Source of the DNA: Verrucomicrobiaceae bacterium
GTDB lineage: Bacteria; Verrucomicrobiota; Verrucomicrobiia; Verrucomicrobiales; Verrucomicrobiaceae
Assembly (NCBI GenBank): GCA_947466075.1
Contig: CANIBP010000007.1
Coordinates: forward strand, 9,272-73,271
Direction: 5' to 3'
DNA length: 64,000 nt
Shown here: piece after piece, positions 7,383 to 28,519 of the stretch
How positions within the stretch are numbered: the first letter of the stretch is position 1
Layout of the letters: each line of letters opens with the position of its first letter
Position numbers and translations under genes: made by a program
Notes under the pieces: model-generated
Seen by the model: only the letters and a program-made list of their open reading frames with translations
Databases searched by the model: none
What the model was told of the DNA's origin: nothing

Positions 7383-10300
7383 ATGCTGAGCAACGCCCAT
7401 CTCCTCATCGCTGCCTTGTTAGCGGCCGCATCAACCGCTTCAGCGGAAACCATCGGCTTTAATAAGGACATCCGCCCCATCCTGGCGGATGCGTGCTTTC
7501 ACTGCCATGGTCCTGACCCAGGAACGCGCAAAGCGGGGCTGAGGCTGGATACCGAAGCTGGATTTTTCACCGCCAAGAAAGATGAGCAGCCAACGGTCAT
7601 CAAAGGTCAGCCGGACAAGAGCAGTTTGTTTCAACGTCTCCTCTCCAAAGATGAAGACGAGATCATGCCGCCGCCGGAGTCGCATAAGACGCTGAAGCCG
7701 GCTGAAATCGCCAAGGTGAAGGCTTGGATCGAGCAAGGCGCTCCCTGGCAGCCGCATTGGTCGCTGATCCAGCCGCAGCGCTCGACCTCACCTGAGGTGA
7801 AGGACAAGGCATGGGTGAAGACACCGGTGGATCGTTTTGTTTTGTCTAAACTGGAGGCCGCAGGACTCAAACCCGCGCCAGAGGCAGATGCACACGCGCT
7901 CATTCGTCGTGTAAGTCTCGACCTGACGGGGCTGCCGCCTTCGCCGGAGTTGGTGAAGCACTATGCCACCGCTGACAAGCTCACGGACGCTCAACTCAGC
8001 GCGCTCGTCGATGAACTCATGGAGTCTCCCGCATACGGCGAGCATCGCGCTCGTTACTGGCTGGATGCAGCACGTTATGGCGACTCGCACGGCCTGCATT
8101 TTGATAAACCACGCGAGATGTGGCCTTACCGCGATTGGGTGGTGAAAGCCTTCAACCTCAACCAGCCTTTCGATCAGTTCACCATTCAGCAAATCGCGGG
8201 CGATTTGCTGCCAAAGCCCACCGAGGACCAGCTCGTGGCCACGGGCTTCCAGCGCTGCAACATCACCACGAATGAAGGCGGCACCATTGATGAGGAAAAC
8301 CTCGCCAACTACGCCGCGGATCGTGTGCAAACGATGGGCTGGGTCTATTTCGGCCTCACCACGAATTGCTCGCAATGCCACGATCACAAGTTCGACCCCA
8401 TCACGCAGCGCGACTATTACTCGATGGCCGCCTTTTTCCGCAACACGACGCAGAAGGCCAAGGACGGCAACGTGAAGGATGGCCTCGGCCCTATTCTTGT
8501 GCTACCGACGGACACAGATCGTCCGCGTTGGACTGCCCTGCCCGCCGAGATCGCTGCGGCGAAAACCAAGCTGGATGAATCACGCAAAGGCGCGAAGCCG
8601 AGCTTTGATCAATGGCTTGCCAGTGCGAAGCCCGAAGACCTCGACAAAGACGTGCCGAGCAAAGGCATCGTCGCTCATCTGCCGCTGAATGAAGGCGTGG
8701 GCAGTGAAGTCACGGGCGTGTGCGGTGCGCCGAAGAAATTCAAAGCCACCGGCGAAGTCTCGTGGAAGCCCGATGGCAAACTCGGGCCTGCTCCGGTGAT
8801 GAAAGCAGGCGGCACCTTTGAGATCGGCGACGTGGGCGACTTTGAAAAGAATCACGCCTTCAGCTATGGCGCATGGGTTCGTGCAGGCCGCGCAGGCGTC
8901 TTCGGCGGCATCCTCGCTCGCATGGACGAGAAGGGCGACTATCGAGGTTGGGACCTTTTCCAAAACGACACCAAGCTCAGCGTTCACATCGTCAGCAAAT
9001 GGCCCGACGACGCGATCAAAGTCACCACGAATAAGCCCGCACTGCGGCCCAATGTTTGGCAGCACGTCTTCGTCACCTATGACGGCAAAGGAAAAGCCGG
9101 TGGCGTGCGCATCTTCATCAATGGTGAGGACACGCCCGTGAAAGCCGAAACCAATGCACTCAAAGGCAGCATCAAGACCACCACACCCACACGCATCGGC
9201 CAGCGCAGCCACACGCAGCTCTTCACGGACGGCGGCGTGCAGGACGTGCGCATCTATGACCGCCAACTCAGCGCAGCGGAAGTGATGACCATTTCCAAAG
9301 TCGGCCCGCTGAGCACCATGCTCGCAGCCAAGAAACAAGGCCCGAAACAGCAGGAGGCCCTCTTTGAGCACTACCTCGTCACTCGCGATACCACCTATCA
9401 GGCCGCATCGGCTCAAAGCGGCAAGCTCACCGCCGAACAAGAAGCCATCAAAGCCCGCAGCCCCATCACACACATCCAGCAAGAGAAGATGGACGCCAAA
9501 CCCATGGCCAACATCCTCATGCGTGGTGCCTATGACAAAGTCGGCGATCAGGTCGATGCCGCCGTACCTGCTTCACTCGGCAAATTGCCCGCGAATGCTC
9601 CGAGGAACCGACTCGGCCTCGCGCAGTGGCTCGTCGCAGCCGAAAATCCGCTCACCGCACGCGTCACCGTGAACCGCTTCTGGCAGGAGCTCTTCGGCGC
9701 AGGCATCGTGAAGACCAGCGACGACTTCGGCATCATGGGCAGCGCTCCCACGCATCCCGAATTGCTCGACTGGCTCGCCGTCGAGTTCCGTGAGAGCGGC
9801 TGGGATGTGAAGCGCTTCTACAAGATGCTTCTCACCTCCGCCACCTACCGCCAGGCCGCACTCATCACGCCGGAGAAGATCGAAAAAGATCGCGATAATT
9901 CGCTCCTCAGCCGCGGCCCACGTTTCCGCATGGATGCCGAGATGATCCGCGACTACGCACTCGCCGCCAGCAGCACGCTCTCACCTCGCATGGGCGGCCC
10001 TGGCACCATGCCGTATCAGCCCGAGAACATCTGGGAAGTCGTCGGACTCGGCACCGAGAAGTACAAGCAAGACAACGGCGAGAACCTCTATCGCCGCACG
10101 CTCTACAACTTCTGGAAGCGCATGTCCCCTTCCCCCAACATGGACATCTTCAACGCGCCCTCGCGTGAAGTGAGCTGCGTCCGCCGCGACCGCACCAACA
10201 CCCCGTTGCAAGCCCTCGTCACCATGAACGACCCCCAGTTCATCGAAGCTGCCCGCAACCTCGCCCAAAAAGCCATCGCGACCTCAGACCCACTCGCCTA

Positions 10301-10529
10301 CATCGCCGAGCACATCCTCTGCCGCCCACTCAAAGCCAACGAACTCACCATCCTCAACACCAGCCTCACCGACCTCCGCAAGCACTACACCACCAGCGCC
10401 GCCGACGCCGAAGCTCTCCTCAAAGTCGGTGAATCCAAACCCGACGAGAAGCTCCCGAAAGCCGAACTCGCGGCTTGGACGATGCTCGCGAATCAGCTCA
10501 TGAACCTGGACGAAGTCCTCAACAAATAA
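7383..10529 (+). CDS. PSCyt1/PSCyt2/PSD (DUF1549/DUF1553) protein with haem-binding CxxCH and an inserted LamG-like domain
   Basis: Signal peptide. CFHCHGPD planctomycete cytochrome c motif. DUF1549-like (RRVSLDLTGLPPSPE) and DUF1553-like (NCSQCHDHKFDP, C-terminal NRFWQELFG) blocks. A central concanavalin-like segment. Confidence 0.9.
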   Translation: MLSNAHLLIAALLAAASTASAETIGFNKDIRPILADACFHCHGPDPGTRKAGLRLDTEAGFFTAKKDEQPTVIKGQPDKSSLFQRLLSKDEDEIMPPPESHKTLKPAEIAKVKAWIEQGAPWQPHWSLIQPQRSTSPEVKDKAWVKTPVDRFVLSKLEAAGLKPAPEADAHALIRRVSLDLTGLPPSPELVKHYATADKLTDAQLSALVDELMESPAYGEHRARYWLDAARYGDSHGLHFDKPREMWPYRDWVVKAFNLNQPFDQFTIQQIAGDLLPKPTEDQLVATGFQRCNITTNEGGTIDEENLANYAADRVQTMGWVYFGLTTNCSQCHDHKFDPITQRDYYSMAAFFRNTTQKAKDGNVKDGLGPILVLPTDTDRPRWTALPAEIAAAKTKLDESRKGAKPSFDQWLASAKPEDLDKDVPSKGIVAHLPLNEGVGSEVTGVCGAPKKFKATGEVSWKPDGKLGPAPVMKAGGTFEIGDVGDFEKNHAFSYGAWVRAGRAGVFGGILARMDEKGDYRGWDLFQNDTKLSVHIVSKWPDDAIKVTTNKPALRPNVWQHVFVTYDGKGKAGGVRIFINGEDTPVKAETNALKGSIKTTTPTRIGQRSHTQLFTDGGVQDVRIYDRQLSAAEVMTISKVGPLSTMLAAKKQGPKQQEALFEHYLVTRDTTYQAASAQSGKLTAEQEAIKARSPITHIQQEKMDAKPMANILMRGAYDKVGDQVDAAVPASLGKLPANAPRNRLGLAQWLVAAENPLTARVTVNRFWQELFGAGIVKTSDDFGIMGSAPTHPELLDWLAVEFRESGWDVKRFYKMLLTSATYRQAALITPEKIEKDRDNSLLSRGPRFRMDAEMIRDYALAASSTLSPRMGGPGTMPYQPENIWEVVGLGTEKYKQDNGENLYRRTLYNFWKRMSPSPNMDIFNAPSREVSCVRRDRTNTPLQALVTMNDPQFIEAARNLAQKAIATSDPLAYIAEHILCRPLKANELTILNTSLTDLRKHYTTSAADAEALLKVGESKPDEKLPKAELAAWTMLANQLMNLDEVLNK

Positions 10530-10539
10530 TCCAACCGCC

Positions 10540-11988
10540 ATGCATCTTCTTCAAGAATGGAATACCCATCAGACTCGCCGTCAGCTCTTCGCTCGCGGTA
10601 AAAACGTGCTCGGTGGTGCGGCGCTGGCTTCGCTGTTTGGCGAGTCTTTGGCGAATGCCTCGAATGCGCATGCTCAAGGGCCGCAGTTTCCGCCGAAAGC
10701 CAAGCGGGTGATCTACCTGCACATGGTCGGTGGCCCGGCGCAGATGGATTTGTTCGACTACAAGCCGCAGATGCAGGCCTATTACGACAAGGACCTGCCA
10801 GAGAGCATCCGCAATGGCCAGCGACTCACGACGATGACCAGTGGACAGGCGCGTTTCCCCATCGCGCCATCGAAGTTCCAGTTCAGTGCCGCAGGCCAGT
10901 GTGGCATGATGATGAACACACAGTTGCTGCCAAACCTCGCCAAAAATGCCGACGACATCTGCTGGATGCGCTCGCTGCACACCGAAGCGATCAATCATGA
11001 GCCGGCCATCTGCGCCATGCAGACGGGGAATCAGATTGGCGGGCGTCCATGCCTCGGCTCCTGGGCCTCCTACGGCCTCGGGTCGATGAACTCGAATCTG
11101 CCCACCTTTGTCGTGCTCATCGCCACGCCGAGCAATCGCGAGCAGGAGCAGGCCATCTCATCGCGTCTCTGGTCCAGCGGTTATCTGCCCGGTGAGCACG
11201 CGGGCGTGAGCTTCCGCAGCAAAGGCGACCCCATTCTCTTCATCAACAATCCTCCTGGCGTGCCCGATAGCGTGCGCAAGCGTACCATTGAAGGATTGAA
11301 CGCCCTGAACGAGATCAACTACCAGCAAGTCGGCGATCCCGATACGCACACGCGCATTCAGCAATACGAAATGGCCTTCCGCATGCAGGCTAGCGTGCCG
11401 GAGCTCACCGACATCACCAAAGAGCCCGACCACATCTACAAACTCTACGGCGAGGAAGCCAAGAAGCCCGGCAGCTTTGCCAACAGCGTGCTCATGGCCC
11501 GCCGATTGGTCGAGCGCGGTGTGCGCTTCGTGCAGATCTACCACAACAACTGGGACCATCACAGCAACGTCGGTGGTCGCATGCCCAGCCAGTGCAAAGA
11601 CGTCGATCAACCCTGCTCCGCCCTCATCCAGGATCTCAAGCAGCGCGGCATGTTCGACGACACCCTCATCATCTGGGGCGGCGAATTTGGCCGCACGATC
11701 TACAGCCAAGGCGGCCTCACCAAAGAAAACTACGGCCGCGATCACCATCCACGCTGCTTCAGCATGTGGATGGCCGGCGGCGGCGCCAAAGGCGGCCAGA
11801 TCTACGGTGAGACGGACGACTTCAGCTACAACATCGTCAAAGACCCGCTCCACATCAGCGACTTCCACGCCACCGTGCTGGAACTCCTCGGCTTCCACGC
11901 CGACCGCTTCAGCTTCAAGACGCAAGGCCTTGATGGCAAACTCATCGGCATAAATCCCGCGAAACCGGTGAAGGCGCTGATGGCTTGA
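10540..11988 (+). CDS. DUF1501 (sulfatase-fold) protein, Tat signal
   Basis: TRRQLFARG twin-arginine region, YLHMVGGPAQMDLFDYKP and WGGEFGRT...GRDHH blocks typical of DUF1501. The usual partner of the preceding PSCyt/PSD gene. Confidence 0.9.
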   Translation: MHLLQEWNTHQTRRQLFARGKNVLGGAALASLFGESLANASNAHAQGPQFPPKAKRVIYLHMVGGPAQMDLFDYKPQMQAYYDKDLPESIRNGQRLTTMTSGQARFPIAPSKFQFSAAGQCGMMMNTQLLPNLAKNADDICWMRSLHTEAINHEPAICAMQTGNQIGGRPCLGSWASYGLGSMNSNLPTFVVLIATPSNREQEQAISSRLWSSGYLPGEHAGVSFRSKGDPILFINNPPGVPDSVRKRTIEGLNALNEINYQQVGDPDTHTRIQQYEMAFRMQASVPELTDITKEPDHIYKLYGEEAKKPGSFANSVLMARRLVERGVRFVQIYHNNWDHHSNVGGRMPSQCKDVDQPCSALIQDLKQRGMFDDTLIIWGGEFGRTIYSQGGLTKENYGRDHHPRCFSMWMAGGGAKGGQIYGETDDFSYNIVKDPLHISDFHATVLELLGFHADRFSFKTQGLDGKLIGINPAKPVKALMA

Positions 11989-12711
11989 TCATTTCGCATT
12001 CAATCCGCGAAACTTCCCCGGAGCCATGCCTGCATAGCGGCTGAAGTGCCGCGTGAACGCACTCTGATCACACCAACCCGTTTCGATGGCGATATCCGCC
12101 AGCGATTGATCCGTCTCACGAAGCAAACGCGTCGCTTCATCAAGACGTAGCTTGTGCAGCAGTTGCAGCGGACTCATTTGAAAAAGGCGCTGCACACGCT
12201 GCTCAAACTGATACACACTCAGCCCGGCCTTCGTGGCGATGTCCACGATGCGCAGACTCTCGGTGAAATGTTTCTGCATGTGGCGCAAAGCCGATGAGAG
12301 TTCCGCGAATCCGCTCGCCTTGTCACTCGGCGCATTCAGATCACGCGAAATGCCGGCCACACCGATGATGCGGCCCTTGTCATCGCGCAGAGCGTGCTTC
12401 GTGGTCAAACACCAACCAGCTTTGCTGCCACTATAGATGTGCAACTCCAACTGATGCTCCACTGGCTTGCCCGTCTTGAGCACATGCTCATCCTGCCGGG
12501 CATAACTAGCCGCCAACGCTGCTGGAAACACTTCCTCTGGCCGCTTGCCGATCAGCTTGGTCTTATCCCCACCCGCACAGCGATTCGCCAGCGTCTGATT
12601 CACCCTCACATAGCGACCTACGGTGTCCTTGATGAAGAAAACCACATCCGGCAGCGCATCGAAGAGCACTTCCGTGACTGCATGCTGAGAGAAGGGTCCG
12701 GTTGAATCCAT
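11989..12711 (-). CDS. AraC-family transcriptional regulator with N-terminal PAS domain
   Basis: A PAS-like N-terminus (DVVFFIKDTVGRYVRVNQTL...IIGVAGISRDL) and a C-terminal HTH_AraC (GLSVYQFEQRVQRLF...GWCDQSAFTRHFSRYAGMAPGKFR). The start is placed at MDSTGPF (ATG 12709-12711). Divergent from the DapA-family gene. Confidence 0.85.
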   Translation of the reverse strand: MDSTGPFSQHAVTEVLFDALPDVVFFIKDTVGRYVRVNQTLANRCAGGDKTKLIGKRPEEVFPAALAASYARQDEHVLKTGKPVEHQLELHIYSGSKAGWCLTTKHALRDDKGRIIGVAGISRDLNAPSDKASGFAELSSALRHMQKHFTESLRIVDIATKAGLSVYQFEQRVQRLFQMSPLQLLHKLRLDEATRLLRETDQSLADIAIETGWCDQSAFTRHFSRYAGMAPGKFRGLNAK

Positions 12712-12787
12712 GTTTTGGCTGAAATGACAGTTTGACGGCCAAAAAGCAATCAAGACCATCAACGCCTTTCGTTTGATCTTCCAACTT

Positions 12788-13684
12788 ATGAACCCATCCA
12801 CATGGTCCGGCGTATTCCCGGCAGTCCTCACTCAATTGCACCAGGATCAGTCGCTTGACCTCGCGGCTTCGGCCAAGCACTGGCAGGCACAGATCGACGT
12901 TGGAGTCTCAGGCTTGATCGTGTGCGGTTCTCTTGGTGAAAATCAGTGTCTCCAGCCAGAGGAAAAACGTGCCGTGGTCAAACACGCCGTCGAAGTCGCC
13001 GCAGGTCGCGTGCCTGTGGTCAGTGGCGTGGCCGAAATGAACACACAAGCCGCCGTCCGCTACATGCAGGACTGCGAAAAGCTCGGCGCGTCCGGATTCA
13101 TGATCATGCCACCGATGGTTTACAAGACCGACCCGCGCGAGACGCAGCATTGGTTCCGCACGCTGGCGAAAGCGACGCCGCTCTCCTGGATGCTTTACAA
13201 CAACCCCGTCGGCTACCACACCGATGTCACGCCCGAGATGTTCGTCGAACTCGCCGACATCCCGAACCTTCACGCCATTAAAGAAAGCAGCTCCAACACG
13301 CGCCGCATCACCGAGCTGCGCAATCAAACCGGCGACCGTTACCGCATTTTCACCGGTGTGGACGATCTCTTCCTCGAGTCCGCCATCCTCGGCATCGACG
13401 GCTGGGTTTGCGGCAGCGGCATCGCTTTCCCAAAAGAAAACCAACAGCTCTGGGACCTCGCCAAAGCTGGTAAATGGGACGAATGCCGCACGCTGTATCG
13501 CTGGAGCCAGCCGCTCATGAAGCTCGATACGCACCTCCACTTCGTGCAATACATCAAGCTCCTCTGCCAGGAGACCGGCCTCGGCCAAGAATGGGTGCGC
13601 GAGCCACGCCTGCCACTCGCAGGCGCTGAGCGCGATCAGGTGCTCAAAATCATCCGCGATGCGCTAGCGAAGCGCCCAGCGTGA
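12788..13684 (+). CDS. DapA/NAL-family lyase (candidate pyrroline-4-hydroxy-2-carboxylate deaminase or 4-hydroxy-2-oxoglutarate aldolase)
   Basis: DHDPS-family pattern (GLIVCGSLGENQCL, YNNPVGYHTD, IKESS). The track start at 12773 is TTG; ATG 12788 (MNPSTW) is preferred. The substrate is inferred only from neighbours. Confidence 0.8.
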   Translation: MNPSTWSGVFPAVLTQLHQDQSLDLAASAKHWQAQIDVGVSGLIVCGSLGENQCLQPEEKRAVVKHAVEVAAGRVPVVSGVAEMNTQAAVRYMQDCEKLGASGFMIMPPMVYKTDPRETQHWFRTLAKATPLSWMLYNNPVGYHTDVTPEMFVELADIPNLHAIKESSSNTRRITELRNQTGDRYRIFTGVDDLFLESAILGIDGWVCGSGIAFPKENQQLWDLAKAGKWDECRTLYRWSQPLMKLDTHLHFVQYIKLLCQETGLGQEWVREPRLPLAGAERDQVLKIIRDALAKRPA

Positions 13685-13728: not shown

Positions 13729-14535
13729 ATGGTTCGCCCACGCAAAAAATACACCGTTCACGATCTCCGTAAGCTCAAAGGCAAACGCTGCCTCACGCAC
13801 ATCCATGTGAAGTCGCCGGAGGAGGCGATCGCAGCCGAAGCGGCAGGGATCGATCTCATGAGCTGCAGCTTCGATTCGCCGGAGGCCCACGCACGGCTGC
13901 CGCTGCTCGTCGCCGCTGCACCCACGGCTTTCCTTTCCGGCTCCACGCCGCATGGCATGGCCACACAGGAGGAGGCCATCCGCACCGGCTTCCGCGCTCT
14001 CGAAATGGGTGCCAGCAGCGTGTATTGCTCCGGTAGCCCGTTTTTGATCGAGGCGATGGCTCGCGAAGGCATCCCCGTCGTCGGCCACATTGGCATGGTG
14101 CCGCGTCATGTCACGTGGACTGGCTACCGCAGCCTCGGCAAGACCGTGGATGAAGCGAAGGCGATCTATCGCAAGATGAAGGACCTCGAAAACGCCGGTG
14201 CCTATGCCGCCGAGATCGAAATCGTGCCGCACAACCTCGCCTCGTGGCTTTGCAAGCAAACGAGCATGCTGCTCATGTCCCTCGGCTCCGGCACGGGCTG
14301 CGACACGCAGTTCCTTTTCTCCTGCGACATTCTCGGCGACTACGACGAGCGCATCCCGCGCCACGCCAAGTCCTACCGCAACTTCGCCGAAGAAAACCGC
14401 CGCCTGCAAAACGAGCGCATCGCCGCCTTCAGCGAATACGTCGCCGACGTGACCCAAGGCCGCTTCCCCGAGCGCAGCCACCTCACGGAAATGGACGCTG
14501 CTTTGCTCGATGAAGTGGTACGCTCCATTCCATGA
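13729..14535 (+). CDS. PanB-family (ketopantoate hydroxymethyltransferase-like, ICL/PEPM superfamily) enzyme
   Basis: Blocks are collinear with E. coli PanB as I remember it: VVGHIGMVPRH (VCGHLGLTPQS), EIEIVPHNLA (VLECVP), SLGSGTGCDTQFLF (GIGAGNVTDGQILV), and the C-terminal YVADVTQGRFPERSH (YMAEVESGVYPGEEH). Confidence 0.7.
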   Translation: MVRPRKKYTVHDLRKLKGKRCLTHIHVKSPEEAIAAEAAGIDLMSCSFDSPEAHARLPLLVAAAPTAFLSGSTPHGMATQEEAIRTGFRALEMGASSVYCSGSPFLIEAMAREGIPVVGHIGMVPRHVTWTGYRSLGKTVDEAKAIYRKMKDLENAGAYAAEIEIVPHNLASWLCKQTSMLLMSLGSGTGCDTQFLFSCDILGDYDERIPRHAKSYRNFAEENRRLQNERIAAFSEYVADVTQGRFPERSHLTEMDAALLDEVVRSIP

Positions 14536-14620: not shown

Positions 14621-15484
14621 ATGAAGCGCATCCCCATCATCGACTCCCACACCGGCGGCGAGCCCACTCGCACGATCTTGAGTGGCGTGACGGCCGATGA
14701 ACTCGAAACCTACCGCCGTCCCATCATTTGCGAGCCGCGCGGGCATGAGGTGATCGTCGGTGCGTTAATTGTAGAGCCGAAAGACGCGTCGTGTGCCGCT
14801 GGCGTGATCTTTTTCAACAACGTCGGCCTGCTTGGCATGTGCGGACATGGCATGATTGGCCTCATCGCGACGCTGAAGCATCTCGGACGCATCAGCACGG
14901 GCGAACATCGTGTCGAGACCCCCGTCGGCATTGTGACCGCCACGCTGCACGACGATAGCTGCGTGAGCATTCGCAGTGTGCTGTCCTATCGAAAAGAAAA
15001 AGCCGTGAAGGCAGGCAGCGTCACCGGTGATGTCGCGTGGAGTGGAAACTGGTTCTTCCTCGTCGCGGATCATGGACTCGATCTCACGCTGAAAAACATC
15101 CCGCAGCTCACGCAGGCCAGTTTAGAGATGCGCGAGGCCGTGCGAGCCGCTGGCTATCCGGAGGTGGATCACGTCGAGCTTTTCGCGCCGCCGCACGAGG
15201 CTGCGAATCACAGCCGCAACTTCGTCCTCTGCCCTGGTGGCGAATACGATCGCTCCCCCTGCGGCACCGGCACCAGCGCGAAGCTCGCGTGTCTTGCTGC
15301 CGATGGAAAACTCGCTCCCGGCGAGTTGTGGCAGCAGGAAAGCATCCTCGGCAGCGTGTTTGAAGGCAGTTACGAAAACTGCGACGGCGGCATCATTCCC
15401 ACCATCACGGGTCGGGCCTTCATCACGGCTGAATCCACGCTCATCCTTGATCCACAAGATCCTTTCCAATTTGGCATCGCATGA
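14621..15484 (+). CDS. proline-racemase-family enzyme, Cys/Cys type (probable 4-hydroxyproline 2-epimerase)
   Basis: [12 protein letters not shown]-terminus. Catalytic pair MCGHG and SPCGTGTSA, both Cys, which argues for an epimerase/racemase rather than a Cys/Thr dehydratase. Confidence 0.85.
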
Positions 15485-17655
15485 AAACACTGCTCCTGCT
15501 CATCTCTGCCACTGCGGCCATGTCTGCCGACTTCGACGCCGCGTTAAGCTTTCCGAAGCGCACCGAAAACACCGTCTTCCGCGACCGCGTAAAGGCGAAC
15601 TGGCTGCCAGATGGTAAGTCATTCTGGTATCGCGTCCAAACAGGGCCAAAGGCACATGAGTCTGTCCTCATCAACGCGGAAACCGGTAAGCGCCAGACTG
15701 CACCCGAGCTCAAAACACTAGGCATCACCTCTTCGGAAGCGAAGACATCAGCATTGAAGATCGAACTACGTCGCACGAAACGCACGGGCGAGTCCTCTGG
15801 ACTTAAGTTCATCAATCAACTCGGTGAGGATGTGGATCTATTCTGGATCAATGAGCAAGGCGAGCATGTCCGCTTTGGTGGCGTGCGCGCAGGCGCAGAG
15901 CGGGAGCAGCACACCTATGAAGGGCACGTCTGGCTCATCACCAGTCGCACCGGCGAGCACCTCGCCGTCGTCGAAGGCGAAGCGACGATCAAAACGCTCA
16001 TAATCGACGGCAAAGGCATTTCAAAGCCCAAGGAGGAACCGAAGAAGCGTGGCACGCCTGGCAAATCACCTGACGGCACTTGCGTCGTTACGAGCGAGGC
16101 GGATGCCGTCACCAAACGTCAAATCACGATCGTCGATTCATCACCCAAAGAAGGTCTCCAGCCGAAAACCAAAGTCATCGACTACACCAAGCCAGGCGAT
16201 CCTTTGCCGAAACCGCAGTTGGTCATCATACAATTGGATGGACGAAAAATTCGTGGGCCACGGGATTTGTATGAAAATCCCTTCAATGAGTCTGGTAAAA
16301 TCGACATCACTTGGTCGCCAGACAGCAGCGAGTTCTACTTCGACTACAACCAGCGCGGTCATCAGCTTTACCGCATCCTCGCCGCGAACGCGAAGACCGG
16401 AGCGGTGCGTCTGGTTGTTGAAGAGACATCGAAGACCTTCATCGACTACACCAAGAAAACTTGGCGTCACTGGCTGCACAGCACGGGTGAACTCATCTGG
16501 ATGAGCGAACGCGATGGCTGGTGCCATCTTTGGCTTTATGACACCAAAACAGGCAAGCCGAAGCATCAAATCACCAAGGGTGCATGGCCCGTGCGTGAGG
16601 TTTTGCACGTCAATGATGCCAAACGAGAAGTCTGGTTCATGGCGAGCGGTTTAAAGGCTGGAGAAGACCCGTATCATGAGCACCTCTGCCGCGTGAAATT
16701 CGATGGCAGCGGCTTCCAGCTGCTCACGGCCAGCGATGGCAATCACCGCATCGATTTCTCACCAAATCGCGACTTCTTCATCGACACTTGGTCGCGCGCC
16801 GATCATCCCCCGGTCAACGAACTGCGCCGCAGCAGCGACGGCAGTCTCGTGTCCGAACTGGAGAAAGCAGACGCCACCGCCCTAGTCGCCGCAGGTTGGA
16901 CAATGCCGGAGCGCTTCGTCGCAAAGGGGCGCGATGGAAAAACCGATATCCATGGTGTCATCATCAAGCCTACGAACTTCGATCCGTCGAAAAAATACCC
17001 TATCGTCGAAAACATTTACGCAGGACCGCATTCCGCCTTTGCACCCAAAGATTTTGGTCGGCTACTTGGTCATCACATGATCGCTGAATTGGGATTCATC
17101 GTGGTTCAAATGGACGGCATGGGCACCAATCATCGCGGCAAAGCCTTCCACGATGTGTGCTGGAAGAATCTCAAGGATGCGGGCTTTCCAGATCGCAAAC
17201 TGTGGATCAAAGAGGCCGCCAAAACTCGCCCATGGATGGATTTGAGCCGCGTCGGCATCTACGGCGGTAGTGCCGGCGGTCAGAATGCCATGCGTGCGCT
17301 GCTCGATCATCACGACTTCTACCAAGTCGCCGTTGCTGACTGCGGCTGTCACGACAACCGCATGGACAAAATCTGGTGGAACGAGCAGTGGATGGGCTGG
17401 CCGGTGGATGAAAGCTACAAACTCAGCTCGAACATGGAAGACGCCGCCAAACTCCAAGGCCATCTGCTTCTCATCGTTGGCGAACTCGACACCAACGTCG
17501 ATCCTGCCACCACGGCCCAAGTCGTTGGAGCGTTGCAGAAAGCCGGCAAGACCTTCGACTTCATGCCCATCGTCGGCACGGGCCACGGTGCGGCCGAGAC
17601 GCCTTATGGTTCAAAGCTAAGAGCTGAGTTTTTGGTGCGGCATTTGAAGCCGTAA
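15481..17655 (+). CDS. secreted S9-family prolyl peptidase (DPP IV / prolyl tripeptidyl peptidase-like) with an inserted VHL-beta-like module
   Basis: The ATGA overlaps the upstream stop. Signal peptide. DPPIV_N-like propeller. Catalytic YGGSAGG ... GELDTNVD ... GTGHG. Residues ~104-176 form the extra module (see findings). Confidence 0.9.
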
Positions 17656-18456: not shown

Positions 18457-18575
18457 ACGCTGATGGTAGCGAGTGCTCTCAGGTCGTCCAGCGTGCGAGC
18501 TTGGCAAAAATCGCGTATCTCGCTGCCAAAGTGCTCAAGAAGGCGGGCGGCGAAGGCGATTATCATACATTACTC

Positions 18576-20795
18576 ATGAAACTGCCCGCTTTGCTCTTCA
18601 TCGCCTCATTGTTGGCAGCGTCGCTCGCTGCAGCTGATCCGGCGCTGCTGACGCTCGACCGACTTTTCACCGCGGAGGAGTTCAAGGAAGAAAAAGCCAC
18701 GGCCATCCGCTGGAGCAAGAAAAGCGCCGATTACTTCACGCTGGATGCGCCGAAGATGGGTAAGGATGGCAAGGACTTGGTCCGCAATGACACGGCGAGT
18801 GGCAAAAAGAGCGTGCTGGCCACCGCGCAGCAACTGACGACGCCAGGTGCCAAAAAGCCGCTGGCCGTGGACAGCTTCGAATTCAATGCGGATGAATCAC
18901 AGGTGCTGCTTTTCACCGACACCAAGAAAGTGTGGCGCAAGAACACACGAGGTGACTACTGGTTGCTGGATTTAGCCTCGAAGAAGCTCACAAAGCTCGG
19001 TGGTGATGCAGCGGCATCGTCTCTGATGTTTGCGAAGTTTTCACCCGATGGAAAACGCGTGGCCTATGTGAGGGAAAACAACTTGTATGTGCAAAATCTG
19101 GCCGATCTGAAAATCACGGCGCTGACATCGGATGGCGGCAGCACACTGATCAATGGAACTTCCGATTGGGTGAATGAAGAAGAGCTTTTCATTCGCGATG
19201 CCTTCCGCTGGAGCCCAGATGGGACGCGAATCTTGTTTTGGCAGTTCGACACAAAGGACGTAAAGAAATTCCACCTCGTGAACCAAATCGCTGGCAATTA
19301 CCAGCAACTCAAGTCCTTCCCATACCCCAAAGCGGGCGAGAAAAATTCGGCCACACGGCTGGGCATGGTGAGCGCGGCTGGTGGAGCCGTGACATGGCTG
19401 AAAATTCCCGGTGATCCGCGTGATCATTACCTGCCACATGCTGAATGGACACCTGATGGTCATGCGGTCGTGCTTCAGCAGATGAATCGCCTGCAAAAAA
19501 CGAATCGCGTGATGCAGGCCGATCCAGCAACGGGCGAAACGAAGCTGGTGCTCACCGAAACGGACAAGGCGTGGGTGGAGAACAAAAATGACTTCAAGTG
19601 GATCGGTGCAGACTTTCTCTGGCTCAGCGAGCGCAGCGGCTGGCGGCACGCGTATCGCGCTCAGCTCGATGGCAAACTCACGCCCATCACCCAGGGCGAG
19701 TTTGATGTGATCGACGTGGCGCACGTCGATGCCAAAGGCGGCTGGCTTTACTACCACGCCTCACCGGAGAATGCGACGCAGCGCTATCTTTATCGGGTGA
19801 GTCTTGAAGGCGGTGAGGCGCAGCGGATCACACCAGCCAATCAGGCTGGAACGCATGGCTATGAAGTTAGCGAGGATGGCCAATGGGCCGTGCATACGTT
19901 TTCAAATTTCACCACACCGCCAGTGGTCGAAATCGTGTCTCTGCCAGAGCATCACAATGCGAGTGTGCTTGTGAGTCATGCCAAACTGAAAGAGAAATTA
20001 GCACTACTGAAGAAGCCGAGGTGCGAATTCCTCCGTGTCGATATCGGCGGCGGTGTGAAGCTCGATGCATGGAGTGTCAGCGCGGCTGATTTGGCCACAT
20101 CCAAGAAGCATCCCCTGCTCATGTATGTGTATGGCGAGCCAGCAGGACAGACGGTGAAGGACGCATGGGGCGGCTCTAAGATGCTGTGGCATTGGATGCT
20201 CGCGCAGCAGGGCTACATCGTCGCCAGTGTGGACAATCGCGGCACGCCAGCGCCACGTGGACGTGACTGGCGGCGGTGTGTGTATCGACAGCTCGGTGTT
20301 TTGAGTTCACAAGAGCAAGCAGAGGCTGTGAAGGCACTGCTGAAGCGCTGGCCTCAGGCAGATCCTGCGCGTGTCGGCATCTGGGGCTGGAGCGGCGGCG
20401 GCAGTTCGAGTCTGGATGCCATTTTCCGCTACCCGGACATCTACCACACTGCGATCTCGGTGGCTCCGGTGACTGATCGCATGCTCTACGATTCCATTTA
20501 CGAAGAGCGCTACATGGGCCTGCCGAAAGAAAACGCCAAAGATTACAAGCAGGCATCATCCATCAACTACGCCGCTGCTTTGAAAGGGAACCTCCTCATC
20601 GTGCATGGCACCGGCGACGACAACGTGCACTACCAGGGCGTGGAGAAGCTCATCAACGAACTCATCGCGAAAAATAAAGCCTTCACCGTTATGCCCTACC
20701 CCAATCGCGACCACGCGATCAATCAGGGCAAAGGCACCACACGTCATCTCTACGGGCTGTTCACTGAATACCTGCAAACGCATCTCCATGAGTAA
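18576..20795 (+). CDS. secreted dipeptidyl peptidase IV (S9B)
   Basis: Signal peptide MKLPALLFIASLLAASLAAA. DPPIV_N propeller motifs (DWVNEEE). Catalytic GWSGGG, GTGDDNVH and RDHAI. Confidence 0.9.
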   Translation: MKLPALLFIASLLAASLAAADPALLTLDRLFTAEEFKEEKATAIRWSKKSADYFTLDAPKMGKDGKDLVRNDTASGKKSVLATAQQLTTPGAKKPLAVDSFEFNADESQVLLFTDTKKVWRKNTRGDYWLLDLASKKLTKLGGDAAASSLMFAKFSPDGKRVAYVRENNLYVQNLADLKITALTSDGGSTLINGTSDWVNEEELFIRDAFRWSPDGTRILFWQFDTKDVKKFHLVNQIAGNYQQLKSFPYPKAGEKNSATRLGMVSAAGGAVTWLKIPGDPRDHYLPHAEWTPDGHAVVLQQMNRLQKTNRVMQADPATGETKLVLTETDKAWVENKNDFKWIGADFLWLSERSGWRHAYRAQLDGKLTPITQGEFDVIDVAHVDAKGGWLYYHASPENATQRYLYRVSLEGGEAQRITPANQAGTHGYEVSEDGQWAVHTFSNFTTPPVVEIVSLPEHHNASVLVSHAKLKEKLALLKKPRCEFLRVDIGGGVKLDAWSVSAADLATSKKHPLLMYVYGEPAGQTVKDAWGGSKMLWHWMLAQQGYIVASVDNRGTPAPRGRDWRRCVYRQLGVLSSQEQAEAVKALLKRWPQADPARVGIWGWSGGGSSSLDAIFRYPDIYHTAISVAPVTDRMLYDSIYEERYMGLPKENAKDYKQASSINYAAALKGNLLIVHGTGDDNVHYQGVEKLINELIAKNKAFTVMPYPNRDHAINQGKGTTRHLYGLFTEYLQTHLHE

Positions 20796-22029
20796 ACAAA
20801 TCACCATCCTCGGCGCAGGTGTCATCGGCCTCAGCACGGCGCTTTATTGCGCCCGGCGCGGCATGCGGGCGACAATCATCGACCAAAAGCCGCGTCAGCG
20901 CGATGGCTGTTCGTTTGGCAATGCGGGCATGATCGTGCCGAGCCACTTCATCCCGCTCGCGGCTCCAGGCATGGTCAAACTAGGCCTCAAATGGATGTGG
21001 AATCCGGAATCGCCCTTCTACATCAAGCCGCGGCTCAATTTAGATTTGATGACCTGGGGCCTGCATTTCTGGAAAGCGGCTACCAAAGGCCGAGTCGATG
21101 CCGCAGCGCCTGTGTTGCGTGATTTGAGCCTGCTGAGCCGCCAATGTTTCGAGGAGATCGGGCTCGACTTCGGTCTCGTGAAGAAGGGACTGCTCATGCT
21201 GTGCAAAAAACAACAGACGCTCGATGAAGAAGCTCACATGGCGGCAATAGCGAACAAGCTCGGCATTCCCGCCGAAGTTCTCGACGCCAAGGCCACTGCG
21301 GCGCTCGATCCAGCAGTGACGATGGATGTGTGCGGTAGTGTCTTCTTTCCGAAAGACTGCCATCTAGCACCTGGACGCTTCATCGCCGCAGTGGAGCAGG
21401 AGTTGATGAAGTTCGGAGTCGAAATGCTGTGGGAGACTGAGGTGCGTGGCTTTGATGTCGAGAATGGAGCGTTGCGGGCAGTCAAGACGTCAAAAGGTCA
21501 AGTCGAGGGTCAAGAAGTGGTGCTGTGCGGTGGCGTGTGGTCGGCGGATTTGGCGAAGGAACTCGATTTGAAGCTGCCGATGCAGGCGGGCAAAGGCTAC
21601 AGCCTCACGCTCACGAATCCGAAGCAACTTCCCGAACTGTGCAGCATCTGCACGGAGGCGCGACTCGCCGTGACGCCGATGGATGGTGCGCTGCGAGTCG
21701 GCGGCACGATGGAGATGGCTGGAACCGATGAATCCATCACGCCACGCCGTGTGCGCGGCATCACACGAGCCTTTCCCGACTTCTTCCCCGCCTTCAATGA
21801 AAGCGATTTCGCCGATGTAAAACCTTGGAGCGGCTTGCGGCCCGTCTCACCCGACGGCATGCCCTACCTCGGCCGCACACAGCGCTGGAAGAACCTCACC
21901 ATCGCCACCGGCCACGCCATGATGGGCCTCAGCCTCGCTCCCGCGACAGGCAAAATTATCGCGGATGTGCTTTGTGGTGAGAAATCGCCCGTAGCACTCG
22001 ATTTGATGTCACCTGATCGCTTCTTATGA
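20788..22029 (+). CDS. FAD-dependent D-amino-acid dehydrogenase/oxidase-family enzyme (candidate D-hydroxyproline dehydrogenase)
   Basis: The start at MSKQITILGAGVIGLSTALYCARRG (GxGxxG) overlaps the DPP IV stop by 8 nt (ATGAGTAA). DAO-family C-terminal GHAMMGLSLAP. The substrate is inferred from context. Confidence 0.8.
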   Translation: MSKQITILGAGVIGLSTALYCARRGMRATIIDQKPRQRDGCSFGNAGMIVPSHFIPLAAPGMVKLGLKWMWNPESPFYIKPRLNLDLMTWGLHFWKAATKGRVDAAAPVLRDLSLLSRQCFEEIGLDFGLVKKGLLMLCKKQQTLDEEAHMAAIANKLGIPAEVLDAKATAALDPAVTMDVCGSVFFPKDCHLAPGRFIAAVEQELMKFGVEMLWETEVRGFDVENGALRAVKTSKGQVEGQEVVLCGGVWSADLAKELDLKLPMQAGKGYSLTLTNPKQLPELCSICTEARLAVTPMDGALRVGGTMEMAGTDESITPRRVRGITRAFPDFFPAFNESDFADVKPWSGLRPVSPDGMPYLGRTQRWKNLTIATGHAMMGLSLAPATGKIIADVLCGEKSPVALDLMSPDRFL

Positions 22030-23768
22030 AACAACTCATCCTTCTTTTGGCCGTTTCGTCGGCTGCACTCGCTTTGGATCGCCCGAAGTTGCAAATCATC
22101 AACGCGGCACCGAATGCGATCGAGGTGTATTGGGAAATGAACGATGGGCATCGTGTCTCGAATGGCACGATAGAACCCGGCAATAACAAGGTCATCGGCA
22201 CAACAATCGGGCACCGCTTTGTGATTGTAGATGGCAAGCGTGAGACCGATGTGGTGAGCCAGGTGCGAATTCAGGGTTTTCGCTATGATCCGGCGGCGAA
22301 GGATGGGGTGCCGGCGTTTTATACGCAGCGTGCAAGTGCGGGTGGGTTTCCCATTGTGGCCTCGGCAAAGGTGAGTCCGTATGCGGTGAAGGAAGCGGTG
22401 TATCTCGTCGATCTGATGTTGGCTAAGCGTCCAGACGTGCGAGAAGCGATGATAAAAAGCGGGGCGCGGTTGTGCATCCTCGCGCACAACGAGTTCACGA
22501 TGGACCAGCCGGAGTTTGCCAATCTGGAAACCGTGAAAGGCTATGAGGCGCTGACGCCACGTGAGTATTGGGATGCACGAGCGCGTGGGCTCGGTGGTAG
22601 CGAGGAAGATCCCTTCTGCTCCTGCGCGGAGGAGAACCTGCTGGCCTACGACGGCGATCCGTATGACACGGAGAACATCCTGATTCACGAGTTCGCCCAC
22701 AACATGCACCTGCGTGGCCTGACGAATGTCGATCCGACCTTCGACACGCGATTGAAGGCCGCTTTTGAAGCCGCGATGAAGGCGGGACTGTGGAAAGGTG
22801 CCTATGCATCGTCGAATCATCACGAATACTGGGCGGAGGGCATTCAGAGCTGGTTCGACAACAACCGCGAGAACGATGCGCAGCATAACCACGTCAACAC
22901 ACGTGACGAATTGATCGCCTACGATCCGAAACTGGCAGCGCTGTGTCGCGAGGTCTTTGGTGACACCGTTTTGAAATACACAAAGCCGCAGACGCGGCTC
23001 ACCGGACATCTCGCAGGCTATGATCCGGCAAAAGCACCGAAGTTTGTGTGGCCTGAGCGCCTCATGAAGGCTCGTGGATTGATCAAGGGCCAGCAGGTGA
23101 AGCGGTTTCAGGAGATGACTGGTGCGAAGTCGCATGACGAGCGTCTCATCGCGGGCTGGAAGGTGCAAGTAAGCACGAAGCTGATCGAGCTGGATGCCGG
23201 GGCGGTGGAAAAGGCGATGCAACTGCTGCGTGCGCAACTCGACGAGATCGTGCGCATCGTGCCGAAGGCTGCGGTGGCGGAATTGCAGAAGGTGCCGCTG
23301 TGGATCAACCCAGAGTATCCGAAGGTGCATCCGCGCGCCGAGTTTCATCCCGATGCAGGATGGCTGCAGAACAACGGGCGCGATCCCGTGATGGCGAAAG
23401 GCGTTGAGTTCACCAACGTGCGCATTTTTGAAGCCGAAACACGCCGCATGCCGAACTTCGCGCTGCATGAGCTGGCGCACGCGTATCACAACCGCACGGT
23501 GCGCATGAGCTTTGGCAATTTGGAGATCAAAGCGGCTTATCAGAAGGCCAAGGCCAGCGGCAAGTATGATCGCGTTGAGCGCAAGGACAGCGAAGGGCGC
23601 AGCAGCATGGATCGGGCGTATGCGATGACTACGCCGCAGGAATACTTCGCCGAATGCACGGAGGCCTACTTTAGCCGTAATGACTTCTTCCCCTTCACTC
23701 GAGACGAGCTGAAGCAGCATGACCCAGAGATGTTCACGTTGTTGGAGAAACTTTGGGGTGTGAATTAG
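22026..23768 (+). CDS. secreted protein: VHL-beta-like module + two tandem HExxH...E(Y)(F/W)AE gluzincin (lethal-factor-like) domains
   Basis: ATGA start/stop overlap with the upstream gene. Signal peptide LILLLAVSSAALA. HEFAH at 22686-22700 followed 42 aa later by EYWAEG. HELAH at 23466-23480 followed 54 aa later by EYFAEC. Confidence 0.75.
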   Translation: MKQLILLLAVSSAALALDRPKLQIINAAPNAIEVYWEMNDGHRVSNGTIEPGNNKVIGTTIGHRFVIVDGKRETDVVSQVRIQGFRYDPAAKDGVPAFYTQRASAGGFPIVASAKVSPYAVKEAVYLVDLMLAKRPDVREAMIKSGARLCILAHNEFTMDQPEFANLETVKGYEALTPREYWDARARGLGGSEEDPFCSCAEENLLAYDGDPYDTENILIHEFAHNMHLRGLTNVDPTFDTRLKAAFEAAMKAGLWKGAYASSNHHEYWAEGIQSWFDNNRENDAQHNHVNTRDELIAYDPKLAALCREVFGDTVLKYTKPQTRLTGHLAGYDPAKAPKFVWPERLMKARGLIKGQQVKRFQEMTGAKSHDERLIAGWKVQVSTKLIELDAGAVEKAMQLLRAQLDEIVRIVPKAAVAELQKVPLWINPEYPKVHPRAEFHPDAGWLQNNGRDPVMAKGVEFTNVRIFEAETRRMPNFALHELAHAYHNRTVRMSFGNLEIKAAYQKAKASGKYDRVERKDSEGRSSMDRAYAMTTPQEYFAECTEAYFSRNDFFPFTRDELKQHDPEMFTLLEKLWGVN

Positions 23769-26030: not shown

Positions 26031-27305
26031 ATGTTTAGGCCATTTCACACTCTCCTCGCCACATATTTCATGAGCATTGCCGCCTTGTCTGCCGACGATA
26101 TCACTGAACTGCAAAGCAAGGCCGCTAGCGGCGATGCGAAGGCCCAACTCGAACTCGCCATTCGCTACCGCGATGGCAAAGGCGTCACGAAAGACGATGC
26201 ACGGGCCATGGAGTTGGCACACAAAGCAGCGGATGCAGGGAATGCGGACGCAATGGACTTCGTCGGTTTTGCTCATCTCCGTGGTGCCGTGGTGAAGCGC
26301 AATCCTGAGATCGCCATCGCCTATTTTAAAGAGGCGGCGGCTGAATCGGCGCAGGCGGCTTTTAACCTCGGTCAATGTTACTTCGGTGCGCAAGGAACCG
26401 CGCAGGATTGCCCGAAGGCGCTCGAATGGTGGAAGAAGGCCGCGAAGATGGGCAACGGTCGAGCCGCAGCGAATGCGGCGATGGCCTATCGCTCCGGCGA
26501 AGGCGTCGAGCCTGATGCAGCTCTAGCTCGCCAACTCGCGGAGCGAGCGGCGGAGTTGAACGATCCCTCGGGTCTCGTGTTTCTTGGTGAACTGCAGTTT
26601 CAAGCCGGTGAACTCGATGCTGCGAAAGCCAACTGGACCAAAGCCTCCAAACTTTCGCCCACCACTGCCACAGGGCATCCAGCGCAACCTTCTGGCAATG
26701 CTTCTGCTCAAGAAGCCGCCGATCTTTTGAAGCTCATCGATTACCGCAAGCGCAAAGGCGAGCCGAGCAACTTCGCCTTCGTGCAAATGCCGCACATTCA
26801 GCAGGGCTACAACAACTGCGGCTCCACCGCCTGTGCCATCTTCGCCCGCTTTCACGGCAGCAAGATTGGTGGCTGGGATTTCAAGAAACTATGCCCATCG
26901 CCACTCGGCACCGGCACCGACTGGGGCCATCTGCTTGATGCCTCGAAAAAGATCGGGCAGAACTGGAAGCTCATCACCTTCACGCCTGATGATGACGGCT
27001 TCGTCAAAGCCACCGACATGCTGAAGAGCGAACTCGATGCCGGAAGGCCCGTGGTCGTGGACTTCAAATACATCGGCCCGCAGTTCCCCAACGGCAGCGC
27101 CGGCCACACGCTCAATGTCTGCGGCTACATCGCCAAAGACGATCTCTACATCCTTTGCAATCCCGCCGTTGCCACTCCTGGCATCCAACTCATCACCGCC
27201 GACGATTTGAAGAACTTCTGGCGCTCGGATCACTACGGTGCGCTCTCCAAAGGCGTGCTCTCGCGGCCAGCATTTGTCATCGATAAACCTATTCCAACAC
27301 CATGA
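26031..27305 (+). CDS. Sel1-repeat protein fused to a C-terminal papain-like (C39-like) cysteine peptidase domain
   Basis: Signal-like N-terminus. At least 4 Sel1 repeats (AQLELAIRYRDGKGVTKDDARAMELAHKAADAGNADAM...). The C-terminus has QQGYNNCGSTAC (a Gln 6 residues before the Cys, as in papain-like enzymes) and SAGHTLNVCGY. Confidence 0.75.
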   Translation: MFRPFHTLLATYFMSIAALSADDITELQSKAASGDAKAQLELAIRYRDGKGVTKDDARAMELAHKAADAGNADAMDFVGFAHLRGAVVKRNPEIAIAYFKEAAAESAQAAFNLGQCYFGAQGTAQDCPKALEWWKKAAKMGNGRAAANAAMAYRSGEGVEPDAALARQLAERAAELNDPSGLVFLGELQFQAGELDAAKANWTKASKLSPTTATGHPAQPSGNASAQEAADLLKLIDYRKRKGEPSNFAFVQMPHIQQGYNNCGSTACAIFARFHGSKIGGWDFKKLCPSPLGTGTDWGHLLDASKKIGQNWKLITFTPDDDGFVKATDMLKSELDAGRPVVVDFKYIGPQFPNGSAGHTLNVCGYIAKDDLYILCNPAVATPGIQLITADDLKNFWRSDHYGALSKGVLSRPAFVIDKPIPTP

Positions 27306-28501: not shown

Positions 28502-28519
28502 GTTTCAGATCACCACTCC

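Follow-up and report, generated by a model that had tools for sequence, protein, structure and literature searches.

A VHL-beta-like module in a secreted S9 peptidase encoded at a verrucomicrobial hydroxyproline locus

The stretch of DNA analyzed here (the window) comprises 64,000 nucleotides of contig CANIBP010000007.1 from a Verrucomicrobiaceae bacterium (assembly GCA_947466075.1, positions 9,272 to 73,271 of the forward strand). It carries the gene of a predicted secreted serine peptidase of family S9B, and residues 105-175 of this peptidase are a genuine homologue of the beta domain of the human von Hippel-Lindau protein (pVHL). pVHL is the classic example of a protein that reads prolyl hydroxylation; it lies at the centre of animal oxygen sensing and provides the most used handle for proteolysis-targeting chimeras (PROTACs). 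The peptidase gene sits among genes of the families that make up bacterial hydroxyproline catabolism, and a metallopeptidase encoded in the same cluster bears a divergent copy of the module. The data support a known domain in a new functional setting, namely as part of a secreted peptidase linked to hydroxyproline catabolism, and we lean towards its being a module that binds hydroxyproline-containing peptides.

A VHL-beta homologue within an S9 peptidase

The peptidase gene, its parts and the paralogue with which it is compared below are the following (nucleotide positions are those of the window):

15481-17655, + strand: gene of the 724-amino-acid secreted S9B-family serine peptidase (open reading frame, Pfam, PDB relatives)
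15481-15528, + strand: predicted Sec signal peptide of 16 amino acids (mean Kyte-Doolittle value 2.36 over 10 residues; kept in orthologues; cleavage site inferred)
15793-16005, + strand: VHL-beta-like seven-stranded beta-sandwich module, residues 105-175 (Pfam, PDB searches, AlphaFold2 model, Foldseek)
15844-15876, + strand: W122 to F132, corresponding to pVHL W88 to Y98 with the same 9-residue spacing (alignment)
15910-15936, + strand: pocket motif H144-T145-Y146-E-G-H149-V-W151-L152, corresponding to pVHL H110-S111-Y112-R-G-H115-L-W117-L118 (alignment)
16066-16812, + strand: rest of the beta-propeller of the dipeptidyl peptidase IV (DPP-IV) type, DPPIV_N at residues 196-444, profile positions 109-354 (Pfam, E 2.9e-43)
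17077-17646, + strand: alpha/beta-hydrolase catalytic domain, Peptidase_S9 at residues 533-722 (Pfam, E 4e-43; aligns to the catalytic region of prolyl tripeptidyl peptidase)
18501-20795, + strand: paralogous canonical DPP-IV with a full DPPIV_N and the Glu-Glu motif, without VHL module (Pfam, alignment)

Residues 108-155 of the peptidase (nt 15802-15945) align without gaps to pVHL residues 74-121, with 15 of the 48 positions identical. The pVHL sequence used for this count is corroborated by the PDB alignments; on realignment, the count given in the initial annotation proved exact. The limits proposed there for the module, 15790-16008, are almost the same as those of the predicted strands, which span 15793-16005. 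The Pfam VHL model, PF01847, scored 21.7 bits on the whole protein, above its gathering cut-off of 21, and 25.9 bits (E 1e-5) on the isolated residues 89-185. When the same segment was compared by phmmer with 177,635 distinct PDB sequences, pVHL chains alone were recovered (E 2e-5), the next match having an E-value of 1.5. A profile of 61 bacterial module copies found pVHL in the PDB at E 5e-14, with no other family below 0.05. In addition, all 61 of 61 diverse bacterial copies matched PF01847 individually. No member of the bacterial family was found in the PDB by these sequence searches, whether with phmmer or with the 61-member profile.

The predicted fold leads to the same protein. Residues 88-186 were modelled with AlphaFold2 from a 61-copy alignment; the model has a mean predicted local distance difference test (pLDDT) score of 84, with a core above 90, and contains seven strands at model residues 18-88. 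In a Foldseek search of this model against the PDB, the best 50 matches listed were all pVHL at probability 1.00. The query-normalised template modelling (TM) score was about 0.70 (0.66-0.71 for nearly all, the lowest being 0.59), with a root mean square deviation of 2.2-2.5 A for the best matches. Both computational checks suggested in the initial annotation, a profile search and a structure model, therefore returned pVHL. A chance likeness over a short stretch could be argued from the mere 15/48 identities and from a whole-protein Pfam score barely over the cut-off. Its probability is practically negligible, and we rejected it: the E-values for the single sequence and for the profile were obtained against the whole PDB without a competing family, an independent structure prediction places pVHL first, and PF01847 is matched by every one of the 61 copies.

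The host is supported as a secreted S9B serine peptidase of the DPP-IV or prolyl-tripeptidyl-like kind. Its predicted domain order is a signal-like N-terminus, a short first propeller segment (residues ~25-88), the module (105-175), a Lys/Pro-rich linker, DPPIV_N and Peptidase_S9. The best PDB relatives are the prolyl tripeptidyl peptidase of P. gingivalis (2d5l, E 4.5e-49) and bacterial DPP-IVs. More than 120 orthologues with 69-94% identity were found in Prosthecobacter/Verrucomicrobiaceae, and the catalytic triad of Ser597 (in GGSAGG, nt 17269-17271), Asp670 and His702 is invariant in a set of 27 orthologues.

Positions 1-108 of the DPPIV_N profile are unmatched in the host. In the canonical paralogue, the motif WVNEEELF, which contains the N-terminus-anchoring Glu-Glu, stands directly before the SPDG blade, and it is this stretch that corresponds to module plus linker in the VHL-bearing peptidase. 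No alignable equivalent of the Glu-Glu motif was found in the host; an invariant pair, E314-E315, sits elsewhere, and its equivalence is unproven. The protein had been described as a secreted prolyl exopeptidase. The Pfam matches, the PDB relatives and the signal-like N-terminus uphold a secreted S9 peptidase of the prolyl type, whereas the exopeptidase part is not established, the Glu-Glu region being occupied by the module. Similarly, the module had been called inserted. This is true of distant VHL-S9 proteins, whose DPPIV_N match resumes at profile positions 42-51 behind one or two modules, but in the present lineage ~60 further DPPIV_N positions beside the module are lost or have diverged beyond recognition.

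Pocket residues and the bacterial module family

In pVHL, the hydroxyproline site consists of Trp88, Tyr98, His110, Ser111, His115 and Trp117, with the hydroxyl group bonded by Ser111 and His115 and the hydroxyproline carbonyl by Tyr98 (PMC9528729). Our alignment maps W88, Y98, S111, H115 and W117 to W122, F132, T145, H149 and W151 of the module, which bears out the five-residue mapping first proposed, as well as the motif H-T-Y-x-G-H-x-W-L at nt 15910-15936. His110, absent from that first list, is likewise retained, as H144; in pVHL this residue touches the ligand via its backbone. Position 132 (nt 15874-15876), a Phe in this genome, is occupied by Tyr in the majority of orthologues and in 85% of the family copies.

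The module family is large and mostly uncharacterised. When 1.84 billion representative proteins were searched exhaustively with a profile, 1480 matched at E <= 1e-3, 321 of them at E <= 1e-10; word-indexed homologue searches with the module alone returned just 2 and 12 proteins. Conservation across 223 diverged copies is highest in the columns that correspond to pVHL N78, W88, G93, Y98, S111, H115 and W117, and the five pocket residues (W88, Y98, S111, H115 and W117 equivalents) all fall within these top seven. The Thr, His and Trp placed in the pocket by the initial annotation are thus present and stand among the most conserved positions of the family. Filtering to 88 copies below 50% identity left the same seven columns on top, in the order N78, W88, W117, S111 (as Thr), G93, H115 and Y98. 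The S111 column is Thr in 92% and Ser in 6% of the 223 copies, and the Ser111 and His115 equivalents are kept in 94-98% at the spacing found in pVHL. The full signature N-x9-W-x9-[YFW]-x12-[ST]-x3-H-x-[WF], with human spacing, is present in 173 of the 223. This pattern shows a family that conserves the predicted pocket, beyond the fold alone.

The conservation also bears on whether the module is chiefly structural, a beta-sandwich that would replace lost blades and cap or gate the propeller without a ligand of its own. Such a role would suit the restart of DPPIV_N at position 109 in this lineage, where the module fills the missing propeller sequence, and it would suit the aromatic tetrahedron of pVHL, a structural cluster that includes W117 and F76 (PMC3688787). 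We find it improbable, since distant relatives with one or two modules keep much more of the propeller, as described above, and the module also occurs free-standing, in tandem and on unrelated enzymes. Moreover, the best conserved positions are surface pocket residues dispensable for folding, namely the equivalents of Tyr98, Ser111 and His115. The contact mutant Y98H leaves the pVHL fold intact (PMC3688787), so the conservation of the Tyr points to a ligand and not to folding. Taken together, the positions of Tyr, Ser/Thr and His resemble a conserved site for a ligand, in which a buried polar pair would need a hydroxyl partner.

The proteins that carry the module are diverse. They include S9 peptidases with single or double copies, zinc metallopeptidases, astacin, reprolysin and calpain-type peptidases, and also TIR/SAM-type proteins. 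Among the partner domains of 96 representatives scanned, DPPIV_N is by far the commonest (n = 34), and none of the 25 partner families listed for them is a glycoside hydrolase. A signal- or anchor-like N-terminus was detected by a crude hydrophobicity test in 77 of 135 members that look full-length.

Several architectures stand apart. Triplets of the module are joined to ricin-B lectin domains (P0139, P0145) or to a class-3 lipase (P0136). Free-standing module proteins of ~120 amino acids (P0273-P0279) carry the Joint Genome Institute (JGI) label 'von Hippel-Lindau disease tumor supressor'. Finally, proteins of ~1700-2000 amino acids (P0123, P0125-P0128) contain 8-11 tandem modules followed by a long helical, transmembrane-looking C-terminal half; these giants look like effectors or toxins.

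The hydroxyproline locus and a second module

The other genes of the cluster, and the module on one of their products, are as follows:

11989-12831, - strand: AraC regulator (Pfam scan of the cluster)
12773-13684, + strand: DHDPS-family gene, probably pyrroline-4-hydroxy-2-carboxylate deaminase (Pfam DHDPS; syntenic in many loci)
13729-14535: PanB-like gene (ketopantoate hydroxymethyltransferase family) between the DHDPS-family gene and the epimerase gene; it recurs in a minority of related loci
14621-15484, + strand: 4-hydroxyproline epimerase gene (Pfam Pro_racemase, 264 bits)
between the VHL-bearing S9 peptidase and the canonical DPP-IV, - strand: gene of the short-chain dehydrogenase/reductase (SDR) family
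20605-22029, + strand: FAD-dependent D-amino-acid-dehydrogenase-like gene, probably D-hydroxyproline dehydrogenase, its true start probably internal (Pfam DAO; NCBIfam D-amino acid dehydrogenase subfamily, 275 bits; synteny)
22026-23768, + strand: secreted zinc metallopeptidase with two HExxH motifs (Pfam ATLF / M90-like)
22086-22244, + strand: divergent VHL-like module, residues 21-73 of the metallopeptidase (hmmsearch with the family profile, E 6e-8)

The bacterial pathway for trans-4-hydroxy-L-proline proceeds through an epimerase, a D-hydroxyproline dehydrogenase and pyrroline-4-hydroxy-2-carboxylate deaminase. Candidates for all three are present in the cluster. For the epimerase, the top two NCBIfam models are both 4-hydroxyproline epimerase, at 368 and 362 bits, each short of its strict equivalog cut-off (442 for the first), and proline racemase follows at 157. 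Support from a specific model is found for the epimerase alone among the three predicted pathway genes; the DAO and DHDPS matches are at the family level. We know of no part for the PanB-like gene in the standard hydroxyproline pathway. The locus genes scanned included no alpha-ketoglutarate semialdehyde dehydrogenase; the search for one did not extend to the remainder of the window.

The stop codon of the epimerase gene and the start codon of the VHL-bearing peptidase gene overlap in an ATGA at 15481-15484, and the same arrangement joins the stop of the dehydrogenase gene to the start of the metallopeptidase gene at 22026-22029. These overlaps suggest translational coupling of the catabolic genes with the peptidase genes.

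Conservation of the arrangement was assessed in 80 loci from GTDB species genomes, almost all Verrucomicrobiales, 70 of which had enough upstream sequence to be judged. In 49 of the 70, the epimerase gene immediately precedes the peptidase gene on the same strand, and 59 have one or more of the three pathway genes within 10 kb; peptidase identities span 61-94%. Akkermansiaceae and other Verrucomicrobiales are represented among the loci; at the two planctomycete loci, none of the pathway genes was found. The designation of the region as a hydroxyproline catabolic locus therefore holds, with cluster genes of the pathway families conserved in related genomes.

A search of all six-frame open reading frames of the window with the family profile gave two matches, the S9 peptidase (E ~4e-31) and the N-terminus of the metallopeptidase (E 6e-8). 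The pocket positions of the metallopeptidase module read W / N / T / H / F, with Asn in place of Tyr98 and Phe in place of Trp117, and are kept in ~20 orthologues. Its catalytic part is ~50% identical to metallopeptidase domains that are fused to canonical VHL modules elsewhere. Moreover, a 1426-amino-acid chain from a metagenome (P0181; locus L082, 2481-6761) combines two metallopeptidase domains, a VHL module and an S9 peptidase, and by its predicted domain content is a Rosetta-stone-type link between both VHL-bearing peptidases of the operon. The presence of the module on two peptidases of one hydroxyproline operon, fused elsewhere, supports a shared substrate recognition.

Some further features were observed in the window and in the related genomes. 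The window encodes at 7383-11988 a PSCyt1/PSCyt2/PSD1 (DUF1549/DUF1553) protein with a Laminin_G_3 insert, and then a DUF1501 protein. Such a gene pair is characteristic of Planctomycetes and Verrucomicrobia. Of the two genes, the DUF1501 gene was tested, and many genomes have it in synteny with the hydroxyproline locus. At 27302-31498, downstream of a Sel1-repeat / C39-like peptidase gene, there are two adjoining SASA (sialate O-acetylesterase-like) genes, one of which also contains DUF2341 and Laminin_G_3. Several freshwater metagenome-assembled genomes with a Prosthecobacter-like locus (L011, L018 and L024; ~78% identity) are titled 'Akkermansia muciniphila', which looks like a taxonomic mislabel.

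Proposed function and comparison with known systems

From the homology and the genomic context we infer a module that would bind hydroxyproline peptides, a reading that we hold to be somewhat favoured. Placed in the N-terminal propeller region, where it replaces the first ~100 profile positions of the DPP-IV propeller, the module would catch hydroxyproline peptides derived from collagen or from the hydroxyproline-rich proteins of algae or plants. Its pocket of W122, F/Y132, H144, T145, H149 and W151 would hold the hydroxyproline as the buried pocket of pVHL does. Captured peptides would then be passed to the prolyl-peptidase active site, and the module, serving peptides as a carbohydrate-binding module serves sugars, might aid catalysis. 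Breakdown of the peptides would be finished by the metallopeptidase and the canonical DPP-IV, and the hydroxyproline released would be catabolised by the epimerase and the putative D-hydroxyproline dehydrogenase and deaminase of the operon. A precedent for such a substrate is the reported binding of pVHL to hydroxylated collagen IV (Grosfeld 2007 and Kurban 2008, cited in PMC3579754).

Several points weigh against this proposal. No hydroxyproline genes were found near six distant members on their contigs (P0155, P0219, P0253, P0232, P0152/P0255 and P0215), and because the synteny, strong as it is, is confined to Verrucomicrobiales, the link could be inherited and not repeatedly selected. In the protein of this genome, the Phe that replaces Tyr98 would lose the hydrogen bond between the Tyr hydroxyl and the hydroxyproline carbonyl, and the F132 copy may bind the ligand more weakly than the Tyr form. 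Since W117 and F76 are structural in pVHL, a share of the pocket conservation may be structural as well. The full-length AlphaFold model, computed with 27 close orthologues, has a pLDDT of 57 and a predicted TM score of 0.35 and gives no placement of the module relative to the active site. In the glycoproteins of plants and algae, hydroxyproline usually carries O-linked glycans, and these would block a pocket of the pVHL type. Finally, the Trp/Tyr/His/Thr composition would also fit a sugar-binding site, and fusions to ricin-type lectin domains and long tandem arrays occur in the family.

An alternative reading is that of a real VHL-beta homologue with another ligand, for example an unmodified proline-rich or extended peptide or a carbohydrate, hydroxyproline reading then being a derived trait of animal pVHL. 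The hosts are indeed very varied, ranging from the ricin-B lectin fusions and the class-3 lipase to TIR/SAM proteins and the ~1900-amino-acid giants with 9-11 tandem copies, and pockets that are aromatic plus polar are typical of sugar binding. Distant members lie outside hydroxyproline loci, and the altered pocket of the metallopeptidase module (Asn for Tyr98, Phe for Trp117) indicates that the ligand can drift within the family. We nevertheless judge another ligand rather unlikely: both residues that bond the hydroxyproline hydroxyl in pVHL are retained at identical spacing in nearly all copies, peptidases make up most of the listed partners and glycoside hydrolases none, and the S9 member belongs to an operon that yields free hydroxyproline.

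By direct analogy with pVHL and the hypoxia-inducible factor (HIF), the module might instead read a hydroxylated partner protein, in regulation or assembly dependent on a bacterial prolyl hydroxylase. Such enzymes exist in bacteria, one having reportedly been described by Scotti et al. in 2014. We hold this to be very improbable, as the host has a predicted signal peptide and no alpha domain and is encoded in a catabolic operon together with other secreted peptidases. Moreover, no prolyl hydroxylase was found among the locus genes scanned, the window as a whole not having been searched for one.

VHL-beta domains in bacteria are already catalogued, as precomputed PF01847 hits on many of the orthologues and in JGI protein names. 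In the literature searched, bacterial or prokaryotic VHL appeared only in a paper on retrons and in a note on Litorilituus. The same searches gave no work that joins VHL-like, bacterial and hydroxyproline, and none on a hydroxyproline-binding peptidase domain. The module goes unmentioned in a 2025 review of microbial S9B peptidases. A study on the origin of the HIF system traces VHL no further than the base of animals (PMC9618697). Against this background we tentatively raise the broader possibility that the VHL beta domain is an offshoot of a large and ancient bacterial family of hydroxyproline-peptide binders, mostly extracytoplasmic, which on peptidases and other secreted proteins would serve the digestion of collagen-like and hydroxyproline-rich proteins. 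If this is true, the reader half of animal oxygen sensing goes back to prokaryotes, an origin already argued for its prolyl hydroxylase half. Environmental protein degradation would also gain a new class of substrate-targeting module, with a bearing on how Verrucomicrobia turn over collagen and the hydroxyproline-rich proteins of algae and plants, and biotechnology would gain a family of natural, small, stable, secreted and engineerable hydroxyproline binders. The locus provides the first concrete and testable candidate function for the bacterial VHL family, namely the binding of hydroxyproline peptides on secreted peptidases.

Compared with the beta domain of human pVHL, to which it is homologous as a seven-stranded beta-sandwich, the module has identical residues at W88, H110, H115 and W117, a Thr at S111 and a Phe at Y98 (most orthologues have Tyr), and the spacing is unchanged throughout. 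In contrast, N67, R69 and I109, which flank the pocket and read the HIF peptide, differ. The module is predicted to be extracytoplasmic and lies within a peptidase, and the role proposed for it is nutrient capture as opposed to degradation signalling. No match to VHL_C or to any other helical domain was found by Pfam in the 724-residue protein; with neither alpha domain nor BC-box, there would be no link to elongin C or a cullin. Orthology to pVHL, or a function as receptor of a VCB-Cul2-type ligase, was rejected, given the missing alpha domain and the signal-peptide-like N-terminus.

The prokaryotic VHL-beta proteins already in the literature, an accessory protein of type X retrons (PMC7736814) and a hypothetical protein of Litorilituus (PMC9002001), belong to the same Pfam family. 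The function of the domain is stated to be unknown in the retron paper (PMC7736814), and the Litorilituus paper is a purely in-silico note (PMC9002001). They are either cytoplasmic or lack a known context, and genomic evidence had not suggested a ligand for them, whereas the catabolic context of the S9 module points to a specific one.

Among the S9 enzymes, the prolyl tripeptidyl peptidase of P. gingivalis (2d5l) and the DPP-IV of S. maltophilia (2ecf) share with the host the propeller, the hydrolase domain and the Ser-Asp-His triad. These enzymes have a complete propeller and no VHL module, whereas here the first ~108 profile positions give way to the module. According to the title of a 2008 paper by Nakajima et al., the S. 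maltophilia DPP-IV is reportedly active on a substrate containing 4-hydroxyproline.

Finally, carbohydrate-binding modules and the collagen-binding domains of clostridial collagenases are non-catalytic domains on secreted hydrolases, sometimes in tandem, that concentrate substrate. The logic proposed for the VHL-beta-like module would be similar to theirs, by analogy and with no homology, and its ligand would be a single modified residue within a peptide.

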